NCBI GenBank assembly: GCA_030429765.1
Contig: JAUIER010000012.1
Location: 32,916-96,915 of the forward strand
Origin: a bacterium
Lineage (GTDB): Bacteria > Omnitrophota > Gorgyraeia > Zapsychrales > Zapsychraceae
DNA: 64,000 nt
Reading direction: 5' to 3'
Part shown: positions 7,312 to 46,000 of the stretch, in pieces
How the letters are laid out: each line of letters begins with the position of its first letter
How positions within the stretch are numbered: position 1 is the first letter of the stretch
The notes under the pieces: model-generated
What the model saw: only the letters and a program-made list of their open reading frames with translations
Database searches by the model: none
Told to the model about the DNA's origin: nothing
Translations under genes and position numbers: made by a program

Positions 7312-7533
7312 TTAGTTAGAAGTAGGTCGTGAAGTGGCCAATCGGTTAGCCATATCAGTCATACCGTTTGTACCCGTCGTTAGTGTACTGTTGTACGCTG
7401 TACGGAAGATACCATTAGGTCCTAGGAAAACCAAAAGGGCTGCTAATACGGCCGCAACCAAAATGATATACTCAACGGTACTTTGACCTTTCTTTTTCTT
7501 TTTAGGATTATTATTTATATTCCTTTTAAGCAT
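7312..7533 (-). CDS. Flp-family pilin, 73 aa
   Basis: N-terminus ...KKKKKGQSTVEYIILVAAVLAALLVFLGPNG. Shares the FLxPNG motif with the orphan gene at 17400..17612. Confidence 0.6.
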   Translation of the reverse strand: MLKRNINNNPKKKKKGQSTVEYIILVAAVLAALLVFLGPNGIFRTAYNSTLTTGTNGMTDMANRLATSRPTSN

Positions 7534-7592
7534 TGTCTTCCTCCTTAAAAAAGTTCACTTTTAAGATAGCGCCCACAAAACTTCATCGTGGG

Positions 7593-7760
7593 TTACTGAT
7601 TTCTGGACTCTTGAAGAATTATTTGTTGTGTTGCTTGTACTGATCTAAATACATAGGTACTCATGGCAATTGCTCCTGCTGCCACAATGGCTGCGATTAA
7701 GGCATACTCTAGTATACTTTGACCTGTCGTGTTTCTGATTTTTTGTTTCTTTGACCTCAT
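7593..7760 (-). CDS. flp: Flp prepilin, 55 aa (MRSKKQKIRNTTGQSILEYALIAAIVAAGAIAMSTYVFRSVQATQQIILQESRNQ). Below the ORF-track size cutoff.
   Basis: Found by manual reverse-strand translation. Classic Flp motif: a predicted cleavage site after G, then QSILEYALIAAIV. Typical Flp size. First gene after a dedicated promoter and leader. Confidence 0.6.
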   Translation of the reverse strand: MRSKKQKIRNTTGQSILEYALIAAIVAAGAIAMSTYVFRSVQATQQIILQESRNQ

Positions 7761-7912
7761 CGTAACCACCTTATGTATTTCACAAATAATGCCTGCTCTC
7801 GATGTGATGTTGCTTACATCAGAATCCTGAGAGCTCTATTGCTGAAGGGGTCGACTGTCCAGCCGGCCTTCAACACTTCGAAACATCCTGACTGATTCAG
7901 AACGAACCGAAG

Positions 7913-7935
7913 GGTAAAAGCACTCGAAAGTGCTA
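7913..7935 (-). terminator. Second leader hairpin: AGCACU-UUCG-AGUGCU followed by UUUAC
   Basis: 6-bp stem with a UUCG tetraloop and a weak U-run. Confidence 0.25.
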
Positions 7936-7947
7936 TTAACTCATTCC

Positions 7948-7977
7948 AATAAAAAACCCCTACAGTTATGTAGAGGT
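7948..7977 (-). terminator. Intrinsic-terminator-like hairpin in the flp leader (attenuator candidate)
   Basis: Minus-strand RNA reads CCUCUACA-UAAC-UGUAGGGG followed by UUUUUUAUU. The 8-bp stem holds a U.G wobble only on the minus strand; on the plus strand the same position would be a C.A mismatch. Confidence 0.4.
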
Positions 7978-7984
7978 AATCGGG

Positions 7985-8053
7985 TTATGGCTGTTTCAAT
8001 GAACGCAGACAGCATCTATACGAAATTTTCGTTTTGATCTCAAAAGTATTCAT
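7985..8053 (-). CDS. Candidate leader peptide (uORF, 22 aa: MNTFEIKTKISYRCCLRSLKQP) in the flp 5' leader
   Basis: AGGAG, 6 nt, then ATG. The stop lies about 8 nt upstream of an intrinsic-terminator-like hairpin. Confidence 0.25.
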   Translation of the reverse strand: MNTFEIKTKISYRCCLRSLKQP

Positions 8054-8111
8054 TTTTTCTCCTAGGAATGAAATCGTCATATCTGTATAAATGGCTGTTT
8101 AATGTGATAAA

Positions 8112-8139
8112 AGTATATCATATATCGAGTAATTGTCAA
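8112..8139 (-). promoter_or_regulatory. Sigma70-like promoter for flp
   Basis: On the minus strand: TTGACA at 8139..8134, a 16-nt spacer, TATACT at 8117..8112. Lies immediately downstream of the stop of the 576-aa gene. Predicts a 5' UTR of about 345 nt. Confidence 0.45.
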
Positions 8140-8164
8140 GGATCATGCAATGGTTGCCCTTCCC

Positions 8165-9895
8165 TTATATTAGGTCGAAGTTTAGCCGCCGCCCCTGTCG
8201 ATCCCGGATGTCCCGTGAATTGATCTCCTTGACCGCATGAATTAGCGAAGCCTTTGAATCCGCGGCCGATCCTGCCGAAATAGTCACATATACATGGCTC
8301 TCGTCCAATCGGTATGTGGCGGCACGGTCAAAAGTATCTGAAATTGTTAGACTTACGTATTTGCTGAGATATTGCCCCTCTACATAGGCCTGAACATGAG
8401 ATAAAAGTTGCTCGAACATTCCATCGACGTTCATTATAGTTGTCGCTGCGATCGGTTGAGAAGCCGACGGATCCTCATTTGAGGATACGGGCGCTTGATT
8501 GACATATTTCCGCATGAATGCATCCAGGATGTCCGTATCGGCCGTTTCTGCATTAGTAACCAGGGCCACTAGCGGCTCAGGTGATTCGTGAGCCCAAATG
8601 GCAAATACTGTCAGTGGCTGACTCAAATCATGAACATGTTCGTTCAGAATGTCGGTCGACATCTTGGCATACTGATAGATTGTGTCGTCATCATGACAGT
8701 AATAGGGGATTCGCTGGGCCCATTTCCCCGATTTGACCAATTCCTTCAGTTCTGGCTGACTTGGATGGACTCCAATGATAAATTCCCTGCGCTTAGGGAC
8801 CACGAAGGGTAGACTGGACAATGATCGTGATTCGCCATCAAGTATGTGGACCTCGTTTATAAAAAGCTGCTCTGGAATCTCAAATGATTCGACTAACGCC
8901 GCTATCTCCGGGCTTCCCAAGGAGCGTCCCTCGCTATTAAGCAGACACAAAGTATTGCTATTACTGACGATACAGCTGTCCAAAACAGAAATAGCCTTGT
9001 AAAGCGGTAGCTTCGTTGAAAAATTGTCATTTTTTTGTCCAATCTGAAATAGCTTTGTGTCCAGTTTTAGAGATCGTCCATCCGAAAAATCGATCTGGAA
9101 ACTCTGCGCCATGTTCTTGAGTTGATCAATCTCCAACTCTGCACGGGCCCAAAACGAGCCTGACTGTGAAGAATCAGTAATTTTGCCAATGACTCCCTCA
9201 TTTTGGAGTGGAAGCAACAAGGCTAAATCATTTCGACCTGAGTCTGAAGGGCCATTTTTCTCAAGCCTTGTGAGAATCTGAAAATCCAAGGCCTGGATCG
9301 TTTCCTGAGAATTAATGTCCAAACTGAGATCTCGAAAGAGTTCTGTGTAAAAATTTGACGATAGACATTCACATACACCGGCCAACATAAAAGTCAATCC
9401 TGCGTTGCTAATCGGATGCTCCTCCAAACCTTGTTTCCTTGACCGAATTGTTTCTACGGAGCGTAAGAACTCTTCGTCCAAACCACTCTCAGATTGGACA
9501 TTATTTTTGATCGCGTCCATTTCTTCTGTTTGACCAGAATCCGACATTGTCTGTACAGCTTCACTCTTTGTCGGATCATTTTCCTGGGGAGTAGTGACCC
9601 CTTCGGTTTCGGTCGGTATCGGGATCTTGGTGAGGTCCTGCGAAATCTGAATTTTCTTTTCAGCCGGGATCTCAAACTTCTTTTTCTTCTCGACCTTGAC
9701 CTTGGCCGGTCGACCAACGGAATTGCTTAAATTAGCTTGTTTTAGGATGGTGTTGATGGAGGATTTTGACACCTTGATCTCAAATTTCTCAGATGTCATC
9801 TCGGCTAGTTTTCGACAGCCCAGCTTGGGATTTGATTGCTTCTGATCAAGTATATAGTCGATAACTTCTTTTTTTAGTTTGTGGACAACACCCAT
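8165..9895 (-). CDS. HTH-domain protein of unknown function, 576 aa. N-terminal transposase/regulator-like HTH, a Lys-rich linker, then a large uncharacterised soluble region.
   Basis: N-terminal 60 aa (…KLGCRKLAEMTSEKFEIKVSKSSINTILKQANLS) looks like an IS630/ISL3-type HTH. No TM segments. Sits where tadB/tadC would be expected. Confidence 0.65.
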   Translation of the reverse strand: MGVVHKLKKEVIDYILDQKQSNPKLGCRKLAEMTSEKFEIKVSKSSINTILKQANLSNSVGRPAKVKVEKKKKFEIPAEKKIQISQDLTKIPIPTETEGVTTPQENDPTKSEAVQTMSDSGQTEEMDAIKNNVQSESGLDEEFLRSVETIRSRKQGLEEHPISNAGLTFMLAGVCECLSSNFYTELFRDLSLDINSQETIQALDFQILTRLEKNGPSDSGRNDLALLLPLQNEGVIGKITDSSQSGSFWARAELEIDQLKNMAQSFQIDFSDGRSLKLDTKLFQIGQKNDNFSTKLPLYKAISVLDSCIVSNSNTLCLLNSEGRSLGSPEIAALVESFEIPEQLFINEVHILDGESRSLSSLPFVVPKRREFIIGVHPSQPELKELVKSGKWAQRIPYYCHDDDTIYQYAKMSTDILNEHVHDLSQPLTVFAIWAHESPEPLVALVTNAETADTDILDAFMRKYVNQAPVSSNEDPSASQPIAATTIMNVDGMFEQLLSHVQAYVEGQYLSKYVSLTISDTFDRAATYRLDESHVYVTISAGSAADSKASLIHAVKEINSRDIRDRQGRRLNFDLI

Positions 9896-10344: not shown

Positions 10345-12504
10345 CTAGACAGGCTTGTTGAACATCTCTTTATTGAAGTTCATTCCACGGGTAATAAAGT
10401 CGTGGTAACAGTTGGGGACGTATCCTGTGGCCTCAAACTGACCGAGAATCTTGCCATTGCTGTCCATCCCCTTTTGTTTAAATACAAAAACATCCTCGAG
10501 ATGAAGTTGAAAATCGGCCGTGAGTCCTGTTGTCTCGCTGACCCCCGTGATCTTTCTCGAACCGTCTGAATAACGGTTGATGTGAACGATGATCTGAATC
10601 GCTGAGGAGATCATCTCGTTAATCGCACGCACTGGCAGCTCGATACCACTTAACAGAATCATCGAGTGCATTCGGGTCAATACATCGCGTGTTGAGTTGG
10701 CGTGTAGCGTGGTCATTGATCCATCGTGACCGGTATTCATCGCCTGAAGCATATCAAGAACCTCGCCCCCGCGACACTCACCGATAACAATCCGGTCAGG
10801 ACGCATCCGCAGACAGTTGATAAACAAATCACGAATCGTGATCTGCCCTTTACCCTCAACGTTCGCTGGGCGTGACTCCAGACGTCCCCAATGGCTTTTC
10901 TTCAATCGAAGCTCAGCGGCGTCCTCAATCGTGATAATACGCTCGCTGTCGGGAATAAATTCTGAAACGACGTTTAGGAGCGTTGTTTTACCCGCACCTG
11001 TACCACCCGAAACGATCATATTTTTACGGCAAATAACACATGCCTGAAGAAAATCGGCCATTTCCTTGGTGATACTGCCGTATTTTTCAATCAAATCATT
11101 GACCTCGATACGTTCCTGCCCAAACTTTCGAATGGTGATCATTGGTCCGCCCAACGACAAAGGTGGAATAATGGCATTGATCCGCGATCCGTCCTGCAGA
11201 CGGGCATCAACCATCGGAGTCGATTCATCGATTCGTCGACCTAATGGCGCGATGATACGATCAATAATGGAGCGCATCTTTTCATTGGAAACAAATTTTC
11301 GATTGGTAAAAATCAACTTACCATTCTTCTCGACGTAGATTTCGTCCTTGTTGTTGACCATGATATCCGTTACGTCGGGATCGGCCAGGAAATCTTCCAA
11401 AGGACCCAGTCCAAGGGCCTCATTGACAATATCACGGACCACGCGTGTGCGCTCTTCTTGTGAGGAAATCTTACCACCAGACTCCTCCATAAGTAAGTTA
11501 AGAACGACCTGCTCGGCGCTTTTCTTGACCTTTACCGCCGATTCCGGATCACCCAGCATATCAACCGAAATTCCGTCGAGATTAAGCCGTTCGACCAATT
11601 TCTCATGAATCCGTTTCTTCAGCGATATAATCTCATCCTCTTCCGTCGCAAATGTCGTTGTCGTTCCCGCTTGCTGCGTGACACCAAATTTTTCCCAGAA
11701 CGATCCTTGTCCGGACATACCGTCAGTTGATCTGACCTTTTCGACATTGCTGGTCTCAACGTAAATATCGTTCTTCTTGAGCGCATTGACCATTTTGTTG
11801 AATGCATCAGCCACCCCGCTGCGAGGGCTATCTAATACGCAAGGAATCCCCTTGTTAAGGGCCATTCCGACCGTTTTTCCATCTGAAGGAATGTGCGCTA
11901 ATATTTCAACTGGAATCGCCGATCGAACTTCCTGCCAATGGACACTTCCGCGGCTCTCCGAACGGTTTAAGATCAGGCGGACCATATTCATCGGGTAGTG
12001 GAGACTCTGTAAAACGTCCAGACAATTCTTAATCTGATACACAGATAAAATATCCGGCGTTCCGACGAGAAGAATCAAATTCGTGTGGTCCAGCGCGGCG
12101 ACTAGAATATCACTAAACGTACGACCGGCATCAATAATGACATACTCGTATTGTTTGCGGGCAATACGAAAGAACGCCTGTAAAGCCTCGGCATTAACCT
12201 GAGCGATTTCTTTATTGTTTTTTATGGCTGGTAGGAAATGAAGTCCACTTTGATGGACGGTGGCATGCTGAGCTAACGGATCTTGATCGGCATTTGGATT
12301 GCTGAACGTGGGTATGATATCGACGACGGAATTACGAACCTGGACATTAAGCATTCGGGACATATCCTGTCCGGCCTGCATGTCTAGATCGACGAGCAAC
12401 ACCTTTTTTCCAGCTTTGGCTAGTGAAGCCGAAAGGTTTACTGCCGTCAGCGTTTTTCCAACCCCGCCCTTGCTGCTAAAGACGGTAATAATTCTACAAT
12501 CCAT
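10345..12504 (-). CDS. Fused pilus ATPase: N-terminal TadZ/CpaE-like ParA/MinD-type domain (no receiver domain) plus C-terminal TadA/CpaF secretion ATPase
   Basis: Deviant Walker A SSKGGVGKTLTAVNLS at residues 10-25 (ParA/MinD class). Second P-loop VSGGTGAGKTTLLN with T2SSE-family motifs (RIITIEDAAEL, GHDGSMTTLHANS) in the C-terminal half. Confidence 0.85.
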   Translation of the reverse strand: MDCRIITVFSSKGGVGKTLTAVNLSASLAKAGKKVLLVDLDMQAGQDMSRMLNVQVRNSVVDIIPTFSNPNADQDPLAQHATVHQSGLHFLPAIKNNKEIAQVNAEALQAFFRIARKQYEYVIIDAGRTFSDILVAALDHTNLILLVGTPDILSVYQIKNCLDVLQSLHYPMNMVRLILNRSESRGSVHWQEVRSAIPVEILAHIPSDGKTVGMALNKGIPCVLDSPRSGVADAFNKMVNALKKNDIYVETSNVEKVRSTDGMSGQGSFWEKFGVTQQAGTTTTFATEEDEIISLKKRIHEKLVERLNLDGISVDMLGDPESAVKVKKSAEQVVLNLLMEESGGKISSQEERTRVVRDIVNEALGLGPLEDFLADPDVTDIMVNNKDEIYVEKNGKLIFTNRKFVSNEKMRSIIDRIIAPLGRRIDESTPMVDARLQDGSRINAIIPPLSLGGPMITIRKFGQERIEVNDLIEKYGSITKEMADFLQACVICRKNMIVSGGTGAGKTTLLNVVSEFIPDSERIITIEDAAELRLKKSHWGRLESRPANVEGKGQITIRDLFINCLRMRPDRIVIGECRGGEVLDMLQAMNTGHDGSMTTLHANSTRDVLTRMHSMILLSGIELPVRAINEMISSAIQIIVHINRYSDGSRKITGVSETTGLTADFQLHLEDVFVFKQKGMDSNGKILGQFEATGYVPNCYHDFITRGMNFNKEMFNKPV

Positions 12505-12560: not shown

Positions 12561-14222
12561 TTAGTTTGTTTGCAAACTATAAACAATCGGAATTGTTATG
12601 TTCAGTTCCTGTAAGTCTGTCTCTGGTGGAAAACTTTCAAAAGGTGCAGTTTCACGGGCTGTATTTAAGGCATAGTCATCAAAGATTTCCTGCCCGGATG
12701 TTTCCTTGACTAGAGCATAGGCCAACGTGCCATCGCTCAGGATGTGCAGACCGATTTTGACAGTCCCTTCCCATCCGTAATCCTTGGCCTCCTGAGGATA
12801 AACAACTTGCTCAGAAATAGCCTGCTGAAGGTTTTGCACGTAATCGGTCATTTCCGGTGGAATAAATGACGAGTAGTCATCTCCTCCGGACATGGACATA
12901 TCCGACATAAACTTCGTCGTCGTAGGGTGCGGAACCTGACTATCCATCATCTTTTTACGAGGCGAATCCTCATTGAGCCCCGTATCGATTCGATGAGGTG
13001 TTAGTGAAATCACTAACTCGACATCTGAATCTGGTGATGGTGTTGATCGGGATCGGAAAACCAATCCGACAACTGGAATGCTGCCTAAAAATGGTACCTT
13101 TTTAACCAATTCACCCGAACGCTGTTGGATCAAACCGGCCAATACGATCGTTTGTCCATCATCAAGGAATAGCTGTGTGCTTGCGCTTCGCGTAACGAAG
13201 GCCACGTCATCCCCCACCGCATTCGAGTTGTCAATATCACTGATCTCAATATTGATCTGAACGTCAATCTTGTTACGCCGAATCGTCGGTGTGATCGTCA
13301 TTCCAATACCATACTCCTTAAATTCGACGTTTTCTTGAGTAGACGTTCCTGTCGATGTCGTCGTACGAATTGGAATTTCACCACCAATTAGGAAACTAGC
13401 CTCTTCGCCGCTCAGAACTACGAGTTTAGGTTGCGATAGGATTCGTCCCATACCTTCTTCTAATAGAGCATTTACGGTAGAAATCAGGGCGCTTGTACGA
13501 CGGAAGTCCCCAATCTTGAAGAAATCTCCAATGGATCCATCAAAATCAGGCAAGTCCTCTGCATAGTCCAGCTTAATACCTCCGCCGGATCCGGTGGCGC
13601 CATTACCACCACCAGCTGTCCAGTCAATCCCTAGACTCTTGGTTAAGGTGGTGTTAAGCTCCGTAACTTGTATGTCGATTTGAACCAAATCTTCGATGTC
13701 CTCTTCTTCCACAAGGCTTAGAACATGTTGGTCAAACGGAGCAATGATATCATCAAACAGTATGGCCTTTTTGTCAGGCACACTACCAGTTAGGACAACC
13801 CGCCCTTCCGGCTTATTGATATCCAATTTTACGTTGTTAATTCCAGCCCCATTGAGAAGTCGTTCAAGTCGATCTTTAATGACGCTTAACTCGGTTCCTG
13901 AGACGTTAATCATAACCACACGTTTGCCATGTTCGTCCCAGATAAATAAAGGTGTTTGGCCCACGTTTTTGGCAATCAGCAGGATTTCCTGTTCGTCGGC
14001 ATCGACAACGTCAGCAATGTCTGGATCAGTCATCGAAAGTCGGGTCAGGGAATATACGCGTAGTTGCGTCAACTCCCCCAGAACCATGTTGACTTCATCG
14101 GTGTATATTGTATCTAAAGCCTCAGCATCGGCTTGTTGAGGTCTTATTAGCCCAAGTCCCATTATTAGGAAGAGCGCCATTATGGTGAAAAATCTGTTAT
14201 GAGTTATCTGTGCTGTTTTCAT
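12561..14222 (-). CDS. CpaC/RcpA-type secretin with a C-terminal TonB_C-like domain
   Basis: Signal peptide, secretin N-domain, secretin core (…LIGGEIPIRTTTSTGTSTQENVEFKEYGIGMTITPTI…). The C-terminal roughly 90 aa (VVYPQEAKDYGWEGTVKIGLHILSDGTLAYALVKETSGQEIFDDYALNTARETAPFESFP) matches the TonB C-terminal domain pattern (PF03544). Confidence 0.8.
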   Translation of the reverse strand: MKTAQITHNRFFTIMALFLIMGLGLIRPQQADAEALDTIYTDEVNMVLGELTQLRVYSLTRLSMTDPDIADVVDADEQEILLIAKNVGQTPLFIWDEHGKRVVMINVSGTELSVIKDRLERLLNGAGINNVKLDINKPEGRVVLTGSVPDKKAILFDDIIAPFDQHVLSLVEEEDIEDLVQIDIQVTELNTTLTKSLGIDWTAGGGNGATGSGGGIKLDYAEDLPDFDGSIGDFFKIGDFRRTSALISTVNALLEEGMGRILSQPKLVVLSGEEASFLIGGEIPIRTTTSTGTSTQENVEFKEYGIGMTITPTIRRNKIDVQINIEISDIDNSNAVGDDVAFVTRSASTQLFLDDGQTIVLAGLIQQRSGELVKKVPFLGSIPVVGLVFRSRSTPSPDSDVELVISLTPHRIDTGLNEDSPRKKMMDSQVPHPTTTKFMSDMSMSGGDDYSSFIPPEMTDYVQNLQQAISEQVVYPQEAKDYGWEGTVKIGLHILSDGTLAYALVKETSGQEIFDDYALNTARETAPFESFPPETDLQELNITIPIVYSLQTN

Positions 14223-20264: not shown

Positions 20265-22715
20265 TTACCCTTCCTTGGAAACCACGTTGGCGATCGAGGT
20301 CACATGATCTTCACCCTTAAGTGTGATCAATCGGACACCTACCGCACTGCGGCCGGTCTGACGAATTTCGTCGGGCGAACAACGCACAATCATCCCCGTT
20401 TTCGTGACGGCCATGATCTCGTCATCCTTCATTACCGCCAACACGCCCACAACCTTTCCGTTACGATCGGTGACCTTGACATTGATAATCCCTTTGCCGC
20501 CTCGGCTTTGAATACGGTAATCGTTAAAGTCAGAACGCTTCGCGTATCCACTCTGTGTCACGGTCAATAATGTGCGTCCGGTTTTACTGATGTCCGGCGG
20601 GAACACTATCATACTTACGACTTCATCGTCTTTGGCCAGATTAATTCCCCGAACCCCTTTCGCGGAACGTCCCATCGGCCGGATATTCTTTTCCGGAAAC
20701 CGTAAGGCCTTACCGGCTCTTGTCGCCAGGATAACCTCACTCTTGCCATTACTTAAGGCGGTTCCAATCAAGGAATCCCCTTTATCCAGCGTAATTCCAA
20801 CAATACCACCCTTACGTGGATTACTGAAAAGAGACAGATTTGTCTTCTTTACATTTCCTTTAGCCGTCGCCATGACCAATTCAAAATCTTCAGCAAATTC
20901 TTTAACCGCGACAATCGAACTGATCCGTTCGTTGTTTTTCATCGATAACAGATTCACGATATTCTTTCCCTTCGCTGTACGCGAAGCAATTGGAATCTCG
21001 TAAACCTTCAGCCACCGGACAATCCCCAGATTAGAAAAAATCAAGAGATAGTCTTTCGAAGACGCTACAAATAATTGCTTAACAAAGTCTTCTTCCTTCG
21101 TTGACATCGCGGAAACACCCTTACCGCCTCGACGCTGTTTTCGATAGGAAGACACAGCAATTCGTTTGATATAGCCTGAGTTACTGATCGTAATCGCCAT
21201 ATCTTCTTCAGCGATCAAATCTTCTACTTCGATTTCCTCGGCTTTGGCTGCGATTTCTGTTCTTCGTTCGTTGGCATACTTCTTTTTTATATGTTCCAAT
21301 TCGGTTTTGATAATTCCATCGATCTTTTGTTCCGAAGCCAAAATCGCCCGGTAATTATCAATATCTTTTAACAGCGCTTGATACTCGGCTTCGATTTTGT
21401 CGCGCTCTAAGGCTGTTAAACGCTGCAATTGCATTTCCAGAATTGCTTGGGCCTGAATCTCGGAAAGCCCGAATTTATTCATCAGATTAACCTTAGCCTC
21501 GGCTGTACTCTTGGATTCCCGAATCGTCTTGATGATCAGATTAATCTTATCAATCGCAATCTTAAGACCTTCAAGAATATGGGCGCGTCGAAGGGCACGA
21601 TCCAAATCAAATTGCGTTCGTCGTCGGATAATAATCCGGCGGTGATTCAGATAGTGATACAGAATCTCTTTAACATTGAGAATTTTAGGACGACCACTCA
21701 CAATAGCCAGATTAATAATTCCAAAGGTGGTCTCTAATTGGGTGTGTTTGAAAAGTCTATTCAGGACAATTTGAGGTTCAACATCCCGACGCATCTCAAT
21801 CACAATTCGGATACCATCTTTATCCGATTCATCACGAATATCTGTAATCCCATCGATCTTTTTATTTTGAACAAGGGAAGCGATTGATTTGATCAAATTC
21901 GCTTTATTGACCTGATAAGGAATTTCAGTAATGACAATAAAATCTTTTTTATTGTTCTGTTTTTCGATAATTGCTTTAGCTCGGACGACAAGTTTACCTC
22001 GCCCCGTCTCATACGCACTCTTAATCCCGTCTTTACCGCAGATAATTCCTCCTGTCGGGAAATCCGGTCCTTTGATCGTTGAGCTTAATTTCTTAATCGA
22101 GATATCAGGATCTTCAATCAACTTAACGGCCGCATCGACAACTTCACCAAGATTATGCGGCGGCATATTTGTTGCCATCCCAACCGCGATACCACTTGAC
22201 CCATTGATTAAAAGATTGGGTAGGGCTGCAGGTAAAATAACCGGTTCTTTAAGTGAATCATCAAAATTAGGTTGAAAGTCGACCGTATTTTTTTCGATAT
22301 CCCCCAGCATTTCGCTAGTAATCGCGGCCATACGGGCTTCGGTATATCGCATCGCGGCAGCGGCATCACCATCAATCGATCCGAAGTTGCCCTGTCCATC
22401 GACAAGCGGATAGCGCAGCGAAAAATCCTGAACCATACGGACAATTGTGTCATAGATCGCCGAATCACCATGAGGGTGATACTTACCCATCGTCTCACCA
22501 ACGATACGCGCGGATTTTTTATAGGGTTTACCATAATCCAATGAAAGTTCTTTCATCGCATATAGGACACGACGGTGAACCGGCTTCAATCCATCCCGGA
22601 CATCCGGTAATGCACGGCCAACGATAACACTCATCGAGTAAGCGAGATACGATTTACGCATCTCCTCTTCGATATATACCGGGATAATTTTTTGTTTATC
22701 TGATGAATCTTTCAT
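20265..22715 (-). CDS. gyrA: DNA gyrase subunit A
   Basis: 816 aa. Conserved N-terminus (…[25 protein letters not shown]…) and C-terminal beta-pinwheel repeats. Confidence 0.95.
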
Positions 22716-22738
22716 TATATTCCTTTCACATCATAAAC

Positions 22739-25482
<2,744 letters not shown>

Positions 25483-25520
25483 AAGCCTTTTTTAATATCT
25501 ATGATTTTTTTAAAATTAAA

Positions 25521-26609
25521 TCAGATTCGCATAGGTAAGGCCAGATATAAATAGTCATTCATCCGCATGACCGCAGGCTTATCCACTCCCATTAACTCCA
25601 TGTGAATTTCCTCGTCATTGATGTTTTTTAGAAAATCAATCAGGAATTGAGGATTAAATCCCACCACCATTTCGGAACCCTTGTATTCCACTGGAATCTC
25701 TTCACGCGATTCACCCACATCCGGGGTGGTTTTAGAAACAACCATTTTATCGGTAAACACCTCGAATTTTACGGCCTGAAAATCTGGAGTTGACAATAAA
25801 TTGGCTCGACGAATACTGGACAATAATTCCTGTGTGTTCATAACTATTTTATTATCAGCAGGTTTTGGAATAACTTGATTATAATTTGGGAATTCGCCCT
25901 CAATCACACGAGTGGCTATTAACACTCCACCAATATCAAACAGGATCTGATTGGATCCTATGATAAAGGATACTGTCCCTTCATCTTTGAGATTTCGGTT
26001 GATTTCCTGAATGGCCTTGATGGGAATAATGACATTGGTGTCGTTTTTTAAAGGCGATTTGACTGTTCTCTCGATTTTAGCCAAACGGCGTCCATCAGTA
26101 GCAACGACACGAATCGTATTTCCGCTGATTTCAAAAAGAACACCATTCAATACGTATCGCGATTCTTCATGTGAAACAGCAAATGACGTCAGTTTGAACA
26201 TTTCCTTAAGTAGAGATTGTTCAATTTCAATCCGATCTTTCTTGTTAAACTCCGGAAACTTTGGAAACTCATCTCTCGGCAGGCCGATCAGTTTAAAGCG
26301 GTAATTGGTCCCTTCGATATCGATCTGATTGTTCTTTTTGGTATTCACGATGATATCCCCAAACGGGACTTCTTTAATGATGTCACTAAAACGTTTAGCG
26401 GGAATAGTTATTGCCCCTTCTTCAATTGTTTCCACAGGTATTTCACATGATATGCCGATGTCTAAATCGGTGGCATTTAAACGAAGAATATTATCCTTAG
26501 TCTCAGCTAAGATGTTGCTTAATATAGGTAGAGTCACTTTTGTCGATACAACGTTTTGTACTGTCTGTATTCCAAAAAGTAGGTTTTCCTTTGATGCTTT
26601 AAATTTCAT
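25521..26609 (-). CDS. dnaN: DNA polymerase III beta sliding clamp
   Basis: 362 aa, three-domain clamp pattern, adjacent to dnaA. Confidence 0.9.
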   Translation of the reverse strand: MKFKASKENLLFGIQTVQNVVSTKVTLPILSNILAETKDNILRLNATDLDIGISCEIPVETIEEGAITIPAKRFSDIIKEVPFGDIIVNTKKNNQIDIEGTNYRFKLIGLPRDEFPKFPEFNKKDRIEIEQSLLKEMFKLTSFAVSHEESRYVLNGVLFEISGNTIRVVATDGRRLAKIERTVKSPLKNDTNVIIPIKAIQEINRNLKDEGTVSFIIGSNQILFDIGGVLIATRVIEGEFPNYNQVIPKPADNKIVMNTQELLSSIRRANLLSTPDFQAVKFEVFTDKMVVSKTTPDVGESREEIPVEYKGSEMVVGFNPQFLIDFLKNINDEEIHMELMGVDKPAVMRMNDYLYLALPMRI

Positions 26610-26669
26610 TTGTTAACACCTCGCTAACTATATTTTTTAAATTAAACTAGTCTTCGTATTAGTAGAACC

Positions 26670-26678
26670 TGTGGATAA
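26670..26678. promoter_or_regulatory. Consensus DnaA box (TGTGGATAA) in the dnaN-dnaA intergenic region
   Basis: Exact 9-mer match. Confidence 0.5.
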
Positions 26679-26758
26679 TTTGAACAAATTTATAACATAC
26701 TGAATTAATTGAATTTACAACTTAAATCGATGTTTATAACCTATGTGCAAACCCGTGG

Positions 26759-28105
26759 TTATTGTTTTAATTGTGTTGTTAACTTCAGGACAGCTGTTTT
26801 TAACTCAGGATTTGATTCCAAATCATTATCAACTTTTTTACAGGCATGCAAAACAGTAGTGTGATCTTTACCCCCAAAGGCATTGCCGATTTCGGGAAGT
26901 GACATATTAGCCAGGTTGCGACACAGATACATAGCAACTTGACGAGCGACAACAATATTCTTGGTTCTTTTTTTAGCCCGAAGATCCGCCATCGTTACGG
27001 TAAAAAATTGGGCCACCGTTTTTTGGATCATTTCGACACTGATAATCTTAGTGCTCTCCTGAACCATGTCTTTCAAAATAATCTTGGCCATGTCCAACGA
27101 AATAGGTGTATCTTCAAGTAATGCATAAGCCGCAACCCGGATCAGGGCTCCTTCCAGTTCGCGGATATTGGTTTTGATCTCTTCGGCAATAAAATAGATC
27201 ACATCTTCCGGGACTTTTACTGTTTCGCTTTCCATTTTCTTTCGCAGAATCGCAACGCGCGTTTCAAAGTCTGGTGGCTGGATATCAGTAATGAGCCCCC
27301 ACGAAAACCGGGAACTCAATCGCTCCTCGAGATTAGATATCTCTTTAGGCGGTCGGTCCGATGTGATGATAATCTGTTTACGGCTGTCGTGCAGCACATT
27401 AAACGTATGAAAAAATTCTTCTTGTGTCGATTCTTTACCGGCGATGAACTGAATGTCGTCGATCAATAGAATATCAATCTCGCGGTATTTCTTACGGAAA
27501 TTATTTGTCGAGCGGGTCCGGATCGAATCGATGAGTTCATTGGTAAACCGCTCCGACGACATATAAAAATGTTTGAGTTGCGGATGGACTTGTGAAATCT
27601 TATGAGTGATGGCCTGAATCAAATGGGTTTTTCCTAATCCCACTTGACCATATATAAAGAGAGGATTATAAGCTTTGGCCGGTGACTCGGCTACAGCTAA
27701 TCCGGCGGCCGCGGCAAATCGGTTTGACGACCCCACAACAAAATTATCAAAGGTAAAACGGGCATTGAGTTTTGACGGTGACGTCGTCGAGAGATTAGGT
27801 GTTTGGTTGAATCCCTTCTCGAATTCTGTCAACCGATGTTGCGTGTCTTTTTTGAGGATATTCGAATTAACCGCAAATTCCAGGTTCAGGGATTGGGTAG
27901 ATAAAGTTTGCAGTGTGTCCTGGATGAAAGTTTTATAGTGTTCGACAATCCAGTTTTTAAAAAAGTCGTCAGGTGTCTCAATGATAAGAGTGTCGGGACT
28001 TTTTTCTTTGACTTGAACGGTTGAAAACCAGGTTTCATAGGAGGTGGCTCCGACCTTTTCTTTGATATCGTCCTGGGCTTTTTCCCAAATTCCGGTAAGA
28101 CTCAT
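26759..28105 (-). CDS. dnaA: Chromosomal replication initiator DnaA
   Basis: AAA+ Walker A GQVGLGKTHL. C-terminal DnaA-box-binding domain (…HTTVLHACKKV…). Confidence 0.95.
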   Translation of the reverse strand: MSLTGIWEKAQDDIKEKVGATSYETWFSTVQVKEKSPDTLIIETPDDFFKNWIVEHYKTFIQDTLQTLSTQSLNLEFAVNSNILKKDTQHRLTEFEKGFNQTPNLSTTSPSKLNARFTFDNFVVGSSNRFAAAAGLAVAESPAKAYNPLFIYGQVGLGKTHLIQAITHKISQVHPQLKHFYMSSERFTNELIDSIRTRSTNNFRKKYREIDILLIDDIQFIAGKESTQEEFFHTFNVLHDSRKQIIITSDRPPKEISNLEERLSSRFSWGLITDIQPPDFETRVAILRKKMESETVKVPEDVIYFIAEEIKTNIRELEGALIRVAAYALLEDTPISLDMAKIILKDMVQESTKIISVEMIQKTVAQFFTVTMADLRAKKRTKNIVVARQVAMYLCRNLANMSLPEIGNAFGGKDHTTVLHACKKVDNDLESNPELKTAVLKLTTQLKQ

Positions 28106-45779: not shown

Positions 45780-46000
45780 TAATCCCTGCTGTGTTTGTTA
45801 GGGCGATAAAAAAATGAACCTAACATAATAAACGGGACGCCTGATGACTAAAACGCCCGTGGGCTTTTAGAGAGGGTACCCACTTGGTGGCTCGGTTCAC
45901 CAATTATATCGTCCGACGGCATAAGTGGGGATTACTTTGCTTTTCCCTCCTACCTTCCGATTTCTTCACCTAAATAATGACCAAAATCTGCGATTTCCAC
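45780..46000 (+). ncRNA. Candidate 6S RNA (ssrS), inferred from synteny
   Basis: A 355-bp non-coding gap immediately upstream of a 5-formyltetrahydrofolate cyclo-ligase gene, matching the conserved ssrS-ygfA linkage. Local stems exist (CCCACTT…AAGTGGG). The fold could not be verified by eye and the boundaries are uncertain. Confidence 0.25.

Follow-up and report, generated by a model that had tools for sequence, protein, structure and literature searches.

In Escherichia coli, the leader open reading frame (ORF) of pyrBI runs to or through an intrinsic terminator, and coupling between ribosome and RNA polymerase suppresses termination with no need for an antiterminator helix; UTP is sensed by pausing of the polymerase at U-rich tracts. 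At the tad locus of Aggregatibacter actinomycetemcomitans, flp is the first gene and the terminators that follow it set differential expression. In the pil1 locus of Streptococcus gallolyticus, a leader-peptide stop codon located 39 bp before the terminator leads to termination, while a stop within or close to the terminator allows read-through, and the switch is slippage at a GCAGA repeat that shifts the frame (Danne et al., 2014; PMC3894217). Here we analyzed the region upstream of flp, the major pilin gene of a Tad/Flp pilus locus, in a 64,000-nucleotide (nt) stretch of an Omnitrophota genome (GenBank assembly GCA_030429765.1, contig JAUIER010000012.1, positions 32,916 to 96,915). This whole stretch, hereafter the window, has its exact sequence in a single public assembly. 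A first-pass annotation of the window had described a promoter, a short ORF and two terminator-like hairpins ahead of flp. We propose with moderate confidence that the region is a composite 5' leader of the major pilin mRNA carrying two tiers of control.

We know of no work on how attachment is regulated in the Omnitrophota. Tad pili are believed to serve these uncultured nanobacteria in attachment to other microbes or in predation on them (PMC10066038), and their Tad loci have been described (PMC10066038; bioRxiv 10.64898/2026.06.07.730766). Neither of these two sources mentions an RNA leader or a riboswitch, and our other literature searching likewise found no mention; as far as the literature and Rfam 15 show, a conserved structured pilin leader had not previously been described.

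Results

A conserved RNA fold lies directly upstream of flp

Within the window alone, promoter-like sites number 7 against 7.8 in shuffled sequences and terminator-like sites 4 against 3.2. Since neither count exceeds that of the shuffles, the case for function has to rest on comparison across genomes. The comparison set consisted of 45 flp loci, almost all from Omnitrophota, retrieved from GTDB genomes by means of a Flp alignment; look-ups of contigs carrying distant homologues were also used.

Comparison of these loci shows that the main feature of the leader is a fold of four elements, H1-P2-P3-P4, which occupies its 3' 180 nt and ends in the predicted flp ribosome-binding site (Table 1). 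A hairpin of the H1 type is present in about 40 loci with compensatory changes. In the family it reads ACACC-loop-GGUGU(UUUAU) by consensus, the nucleotides after the stem being UU(U)A, and stem variants include CCCGU/ACGGG, CCUGC/GCAGG, ACGCC/GGCGU, GCACC/GGUGC and, in the window, GCACU/AGUGC. At H1, 97% of the alignment cells pair and five of five pairs are changed on both sides. P2 and P3 are hairpins of free sequence and variable length, whose helices are kept although the sequences have almost fully diverged; some loci (L015, L032, L036-L038) are without P2/P3. P4 is closed by CCC/GGG and has GGAAUUC as the internal loop of the family. The highly conserved nucleotides lie in the junctions and loops (UUUAU, AAUAGAG, GGAAUUC and GGGCAAGGnUYAUCUGUUnAACAC). 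Some loci without any short ORF or terminator carry the fold as well.

An alignment of 28 whole leader cores with MAFFT, analyzed by RNAalifold, recovered H1 only, because hairpins of variable length misalign. A covariance model (R1) was used instead, built from the window and its three closest relatives with a hand-checked structure. R1 matches at full length directly 5' of flp in 19-22 other loci, with E values from 4e-14 to about 0.1, and finds one copy only in the window. In the alignment based on R1, 90.3% of cells form standard pairs, compared to 40-48% when the partners are slid. All 34 of the 34 pairs are changed on both sides, and 209 cells carry such changes against 61 in shuffles, counts that are somewhat inflated because the alignment was fitted to the model; the window itself sits one column off in H1 and P4, which biases the counts in the opposite direction. 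A measure that needs no alignment agrees: the mean folding z over 37 leader cores is -3.42, with 81% of them below -2, while control coding stretches of equal length taken 900 nt upstream have a mean z of -0.42. We consider the structure of the fold well supported by these comparisons.

The predicted folding energy of the whole window leader is -97.8 kcal/mol (z = -3.29), a value that 100 dinucleotide shuffles all failed to reach. Folding of the leader and covariation against homologous loci were two checks that the first-pass annotation had named; the leader is conserved in related loci and its pairs show compensatory changes. Its account of the region after the terminator stands only in part. 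The second hairpin is indeed present, but it is not a terminator, since just 2-4 U follow it across the family; it is H1 of the larger fold. The roughly 150 nt between this hairpin and flp (158 nt by our measure) had been passed over, yet they form the most conserved and most clearly structured part of the leader.

An aptamer-like fold with covarying helices and conserved unpaired core nucleotides is a feature that the element shares with riboswitches. Rfam 15 gave no family at gathering score in the window leader or in 17 related loci, and a permissive scan of positions 7500-8400 returned nothing better than E = 1.9 or 17 bits. A scan of the window matched only tRNAs and 6S RNA, located elsewhere. 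Three further pairings, AAUAGAG with UCUGU, the J1 segment UUUAUU with AAUAGA, and the ACAC of the P5 loop (see below) with the 3' arm of H1, showed no covariation by inspection and were discarded.

The conserved tail may pair with the flp ribosome-binding site

Downstream of P4, a conserved tail of the form GGGCAAGGnUYAUCUGUUnAACACnnnAGGUGGnnGCGAUGAGGC runs into the flp start. It contains a candidate helix, P5, in which a U-rich anti-Shine-Dalgarno (anti-SD) segment would pair, mostly by G-U, with the SD region of flp; the P5 loop contains the conserved ACA(C). In the family form, GRUUAUCU is able to pair with AGGUGGNN, by inspection. The register of this pairing is favored: over 28 loci, 78.6% of cells pair, and a shift of the partner by 1-3 nt lowers this to 37-50%. 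A helix covering the flp SD is plausible on this pattern. A leader of the CsrA-binding type would be expected to carry at least two GGA motifs, one of them in a hairpin loop and another over the SD. By inspection, the GGA of a CsrA-type motif is not conserved in the flp tail, where GGU, GAU or GCA is found depending on the locus.

A single conserved promoter makes long flp leaders the rule

The promoter of the window matches 11 of 12 consensus positions, has a 16-nt spacer that ends in TGa, and is the top site in the 4 kb scanned. Transcription is predicted to start near position 8105, which gives a leader of 345 nt. A single near-consensus, TG-extended promoter (TTGACA, 16-18 nt, TATAcT) was found per locus in more than 40 of the 45 loci, always immediately past the upstream ORF and 155-605 nt ahead of the flp ATG. 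The promoter of L021 is a variant, TATAGT, which the search pattern missed. This conserved footprint in the DNA shows that the predicted promoter is real and that a long flp leader is the rule.

Three groups of leaders can be told apart. Promoter and H1 are only 15-51 nt apart in 15 loci, which places H1 and the remaining fold in the transcript from that promoter. In 17 loci, including the window, a terminator is located between the promoter and H1. The third group (L002, L009, L010, L012, L013, L041 and L045) has the fold, with 80-317 nt ahead of H1 and no terminator just before it. Outside these groups, L011 (3915-3983) and L048 (3892-3968) keep the consensus promoter with a leader of only 21-27 nt, and have neither the fold nor the terminator module.

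No sigma-54-type spacing was found in the window. The UCUUUGAC element upstream of H1 was considered as a second promoter and rejected: it is -35-like, but has no -10 at a usable spacing. A recurrent U-rich element, (GA)UCUUUGA(CUAU), again -35-like and with no -10 at a workable distance, was observed 10-40 nt 5' of H1 in, for example, L017, L036-L039 and L044. In the window (7999-7990) and its closest relatives, the last part of the short ORF contains a similar UUCAUUGAAA.

A short ORF runs to or into a terminator ahead of the fold

In the window, the hairpin ACCUCUACA-UAAC-UGUAGGGGU (-11.0 kcal/mol, 4 G-C pairs) has U6AUU directly after it in the transcript, which is the anatomy of an intrinsic (Rho-independent) terminator; we call it T1. 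A canonical terminator is found in 17 loci, 105-215 nt past the predicted start and 16-57 nt ahead of H1, with energies from -9.4 to -16.9 kcal/mol and stems that mostly read (A)AGCCUCC...GGAGGCUU. Nearly all of these stems have CCUCC/CCUCU as the 5' arm and GGAGG/GGGGG as the 3' arm (e.g. L027, L029, L034, L047), and so resemble an anti-SD/SD pair; the short-ORF SD is therefore complementary to the 5' arm as well.

A short ORF accompanies the terminator. In all 16 non-redundant terminator loci listed, it begins about 40-130 nt past the transcription start, and it is led by an SD in 14. Its end lies between -7 and +20 nt from the start of the terminator stem in 10 loci; in the other 6 the ORF runs through the terminator. 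The frame was tested with a crude rule fixed beforehand, which takes the first start codon preceded by an SD and counts a frame as open if it extends up to 7 nt before the stem. By this rule, 10 of 14 scored loci are open, compared to 2.8 expected in dinucleotide shuffles (P about 1e-5). Because its stop falls exactly on the 7-nt limit, the window scored as a narrow failure. Stop codons in frames 0, 1 and 2 number 12, 22 and 23. The encoded peptides show no sequence conservation across loci beyond a loose Tyr/Cys cluster, which fits a leader ORF that would matter by its translation and not by its product; no family match was found.

The first-pass annotation fared well on this part of the leader. 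The near-consensus promoter that it placed right after the upstream gene recurs in the related loci, its SD-led 22-codon ORF is there, and its first hairpin with U6AUU is T1, conserved in position in the 17 loci. Its distance of about 8 nt from the ORF to the hairpin holds if the stem is read as 8 bp; with the 9-bp stem of Table 1, the stem begins 7 nt past the stop codon, a borderline value among the loci. The minus strand is the sole strand on which the hairpin was flagged as terminator-like; the annotation had described it as stable only on the minus-strand transcript.

Downstream of the terminator, a sigma-70-like site able to start a transcript is missing from 15 of the 16 loci scanned, the exception being L006. 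L008, a close relative, carries the same site as L006, and the start predicted from it would fall inside the terminator. In those 15 loci, flp transcription from the conserved promoter must read through the terminator.

The start of the short ORF may itself be folded. The weak hairpin that can be read in the window holds the SD AGGAG in its loop and the AUG in its 3' arm. Much stronger start hairpins of 7-11 bp that include the start codon and have the conserved loop (U)AAGCCACGG were found in at least seven loci (L007, L009, L014, L016, L018, L022 and L033), with stem variants such as UUAUUUCU/AGAAAUAA and UUGUUUCU/AGAAACAA. These hairpins rest on folds of the individual sequences, as MAFFT did not align their 5' arms. 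Their loop, GCCACGGAG, holds an ACGGA-like motif in about 8 loci and not in the window.

The leader belongs to a Tad/Flp pilus locus

The leader is surrounded by a Tad/Flp pilus locus in which all neighboring genes are on the minus strand, in the order rotamase, RcpC, secretin with a TonB_C tail, a TadZ-like::TadA fusion, DUF192, a 576-amino-acid (aa) protein, leader and flp; two more pilin-like genes and then several small ORFs follow 3' of flp. The flp product is short, has a hydrophobic helix and carries the G/XXXXEY processing motif (TTG/QSILEYA), which is strongly conserved across the 45 loci. Together with the adjacent RcpC, secretin and TadZ-TadA fusion, these features identify it as a Flp/Fap type IVb prepilin, although its match to Pfam Flp_Fap (E = 4e-4) is under the curated cut-off.

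The soluble 576-aa protein encoded directly upstream of the leader gives only sub-threshold matches in Pfam and NCBIfam and is related to no solved structure. A search of GTDB genomes with this protein as lone query returned zero matches. Homologues are rare, with 23-28% identity over most of the query, and one of them (P0007, a partial protein) is named Candidatus Omnitrophica. The contigs that carry homologues keep the gene order, and the two of three that reach far enough have a gap of 265-422 nt before flp. In most related Omnitrophota loci, an ORF of 557-680 aa occupies the equivalent position directly 5' of the flp promoter. The protein is a candidate flp regulator or a domesticated transposase.

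Several other features of the window were observed. The pilus ATPase (10345-12504, minus strand) is a single 719-aa fusion of ParA/TadZ-like and TadA (T2SSE) domains, and the secretin (12561-14222, minus strand) bears a C-terminal TonB_C domain. The fused ATPase and the TonB_C secretin recur in the syntenic loci L002 and L004; L003 has the secretin, without an ATPase gene at that position. Just past the flp stop and before the next pilin-like gene, a hairpin CCCAC-N11-GUGGG without a U tract (about 7568-7588, minus strand) could stabilize the 3' end or act as a partial terminator, setting how much flp transcript is made relative to the downstream genes. The 6S RNA gene (60 bits) lies at 45780-45935 on the plus strand, and a dnaA-dnaN-gyrB-gyrA cluster at 20265-28105 (minus strand) suggests a replication origin region near 28.1-28.9 kb.

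Table 1. Features of the flp leader and flanking genes (positions in the window)
Feature	Position	Strand	Details
576-aa soluble protein	8165-9895	-	N-terminal transposase-type helix-turn-helix; directly upstream of the leader
Sigma-70-type promoter	8139-8112	-	-35 TTGACA 8139-8134; -10 TATACT 8117-8112; TG extension 8120-8119
Possible weak hairpin over short-ORF start	8072-8049	-	UUCAUU 8072-8067 with AAUGAA 8054-8049; read from sequence
22-codon leader ORF	8053-7985	-	MNTFEIKTKISYRCCLRSLKQP plus TAA stop; SD AGGAG 8063-8059, five A, ATG 8053
Intrinsic terminator T1	7977-7948	-	9-bp stem-loop 7977-7956; U6AUU 7955-7948
Conserved flp leader fold, full covariance-model match	7941-7758	-	Model R1, 146.8 bits
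5' flank of the fold		-	GAGUUAAU; followed by H1
H1	7934-7919	-	AGCACU-UUCG-AGUGCU, then UUUUA; 158 nt before flp ATG
Junction after H1		-	UUUUACC
P2	7912-7876	-	
P3	7875-7840	-	
Junction after P3	about 7841-7835	-	AAUAGAG
P4	7834-7795	-	Internal loop AGGAUUC in the window; then conserved tail to AUG
Proposed P5	7791-7764	-	Anti-SD CAUUAUUU 7791-7784 with flp SD region AGGUGGUU 7771-7764, mostly G-U
flp SD	7771-7766	-	AGGUGG
flp, 55-aa Flp-type prepilin	7593-7760	-	ATG 7760; MRSKKQKIRNTTG/QSILEYA...AMSTYVFRSVQATQQ

Discussion

The leader probably sets the amount of pilin made, and we suggest that it would do so at two levels. At the level of transcription, an optional module composed of a hairpin-gated short ORF and a terminator would be inserted between the promoter and the fold, as in the window and 16 other loci. 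RNA polymerase would halt at T1 unless a translating ribosome reaches or crosses the 5' arm of the stem and blocks the hairpin. Transcription of the pilin gene would then track translation of the short ORF, itself set by the opening of the hairpin over its SD and AUG, so that initiation on the leader ORF, gated by this hairpin, is the likely control point. Ribosome-dependent suppression of a terminator would predict the pattern seen: a frame that stays open although its product is not conserved, a stop at or past the 5' arm of the terminator, and the lack of a downstream promoter. At the level of translation, the fold present in read-through transcripts would set flp translation, mRNA stability, or both. 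The likeliest route would be the G-U-rich P5 over the flp SD, opened or closed when a ligand or protein binds the conserved core. The conserved unpaired nucleotides and the overlap of the tail with the SD suggest such a binding site controlling flp translation or stability.

The reading of the first-pass annotation, translation-coupled attenuation or a riboregulator of pilin expression, is supported in part, by the promoter, the long structured leader, the arrangement of ORF and terminator in 17 loci and the open frame. An SD-led short ORF lies between promoter and terminator, with its stop placed so that a ribosome would overlap the 5' arm, as in an attenuator of the pil1/pyrBI type. The marks of a trp/his-type attenuator, an antiterminator helix and a run of regulatory codons, were not found in these leaders.

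Several observations weigh against the two-tier proposal. A locus-specific antiterminator that would pair the short-ORF body with the 5' arm of the terminator received no support (permutation p = 0.98); that arm has a single recurrent partner, the short-ORF SD, whose complementarity to CCUCC is trivial. The short-ORF peptides contain no run of regulatory codons, only the loose Tyr/Cys cluster. In the window, a ribosome terminating at the stop codon would open just the first few pairs of the stem, with an effect of uncertain size, and the hairpin over the ORF start is weak. As for the second tier, P5 is thermodynamically weak, RNAalifold predicts no consensus structure in the tail, and the covariation is weak, with 11-13 of 500 shuffles reaching the observed values; the strong conservation of the tail leaves little room for covariation. 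RNAalifold had also predicted, from four close relatives, a long-range helix joining the H1 5' flank/arm to the flp SD/AUG, which did not hold across the family (permutation p = 0.33). The covariation counts of the fold itself are raised somewhat by the fitted alignment. The 15 loci with the fold and no terminator module, and L011 and L048 with neither element, indicate that both tiers are dispensable in some lineages. Finally, each step of the proposed mechanism is derived from the sequences of uncultured organisms.

One other explanation is that nothing is sensed at all: the fold would be a constitutive mRNA stabilizer or translation booster comparable to the ompA 5' untranslated region, and the terminator would just fix the ratio of short to long transcripts. 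Stable 5'-proximal hairpins classically protect mRNA from RNase E, and H1 is such a hairpin; major pilins are needed in bulk, the promoter is the strongest-looking in the region, and the variable length of P2 and P3, together with their loss in some loci, fits a loose structural role. Helices are nevertheless not what is best conserved. The unpaired AAUAGAG, GGAAUUC and the tail through ACAC are far more conserved, which is the typical pattern of a binding site, and the conserved tail overlaps the SD in the favored pairing register. We consider a purely constitutive role rather unlikely.

Promoter, about 150 nt and a strong terminator are also the standard anatomy of a small RNA gene, and several loci have the hairpin with the conserved loop AAGCCACGG near the 5' end. 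The three elements could thus form a separate small gene for a small protein, a small RNA of about 150 nt, or both, with flp expressed from a promoter type invisible to our scans or by unregulated leak-through. The sigma-70-like site of L006 and L008, with a start inside the terminator, would suit this view. In 15 loci, however, the promoter is separated from H1 by 15-51 nt with nothing between, and there it is the flp promoter. The 16-57 nt from terminator to H1 leave little room for another one, and 15 of 16 scanned loci have no sigma-70-like site there. The rapid divergence of the module and its unconserved peptide speak against a functional small protein, and the frame that is kept open speaks against a purely non-coding RNA; a separate gene appears improbable to us. 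That the signals are chance matches in an AT-rich intergenic region, or that one strand is protein-coding, has next to no credibility and is refuted by the comparative data. It is true that the sites of the window are not above shuffles and that the plus strand carries mechanical ORFs, 40 and 51 aa long, but promoter, terminator and fold are kept in position over dozens of loci and the helices covary. The hairpins also change in length by steps other than multiples of three, which rules out coding.

The composite leader with two tiers of control remains the explanation that we favor. An extension of it, which we put forward only tentatively, is that H1-P2-P3-P4 and the tail constitute a new class of riboswitch or protein-responsive sensor tying the Tad pilin to a specific signal, with the attenuator stacked upstream as a second input in half of the lineages. 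The signal could be, for example, a second messenger, a molecule from the host or the amount of pilin not yet assembled. The context of a pilin gene offers no metabolic clue to a ligand, and no ligand candidate emerged. If true, production of the organelle with which these ultra-small, host-dependent bacteria presumably attach to a host would depend on a signal.

A phylum-wide structured leader before the major pilin gene provides a concrete, testable handle on the regulation of attachment. The leader RNA can be synthesized, probed, screened with ligands or proteins, and assayed in reporters without culturing the organism. The fold is also a well-supported addition to the orphan cis-regulatory RNA candidates.

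Compared to described systems, the second tier recalls SD-sequestering riboswitch platforms and fourU thermometers, in that a U-rich anti-SD (UUAUCU or UAUUU) could pair with AGGUGG largely by G-U and A-U, 3' of a multi-helix domain whose unpaired nucleotides are conserved. The Omnitrophota fold is much larger than the thermometers and, unlike the riboswitches, has no known ligand and no Rfam family. As in Aggregatibacter, RNA elements beside flp would set the output of pilin versus assembly genes; the arrangement is different, since in the Omnitrophota flp comes 3' of the assembly genes and is driven by an internal promoter of its own, and the terminator stands before it instead of after it. 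The leader ORF that extends to or through the terminator is pyrBI-like, although no signal of the UTP type was identified and the regulated genes are unrelated. In the pil1 leader as in the Omnitrophota leaders, pilus genes are preceded by a promoter, a short leader ORF with an SD, and an intrinsic terminator. A stop near or past the terminator corresponds to the read-through state of pil1, and it is found in all 16 non-redundant Omnitrophota loci listed (-7 to +20 nt, or beyond). The two have no sequence relationship: pil1 encodes sortase pili of a Gram-positive bacterium, and the Omnitrophota genes a Tad/Flp pilus. The leader would be a second, independent case of a pilus gene placed under a leader ORF that runs into a terminator. 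In place of pil1-type repeats, which the Omnitrophota leaders lack, control is proposed at the hairpin over the SD and AUG of the leader ORF, and, unlike pil1, these leaders add a second, conserved structured domain.

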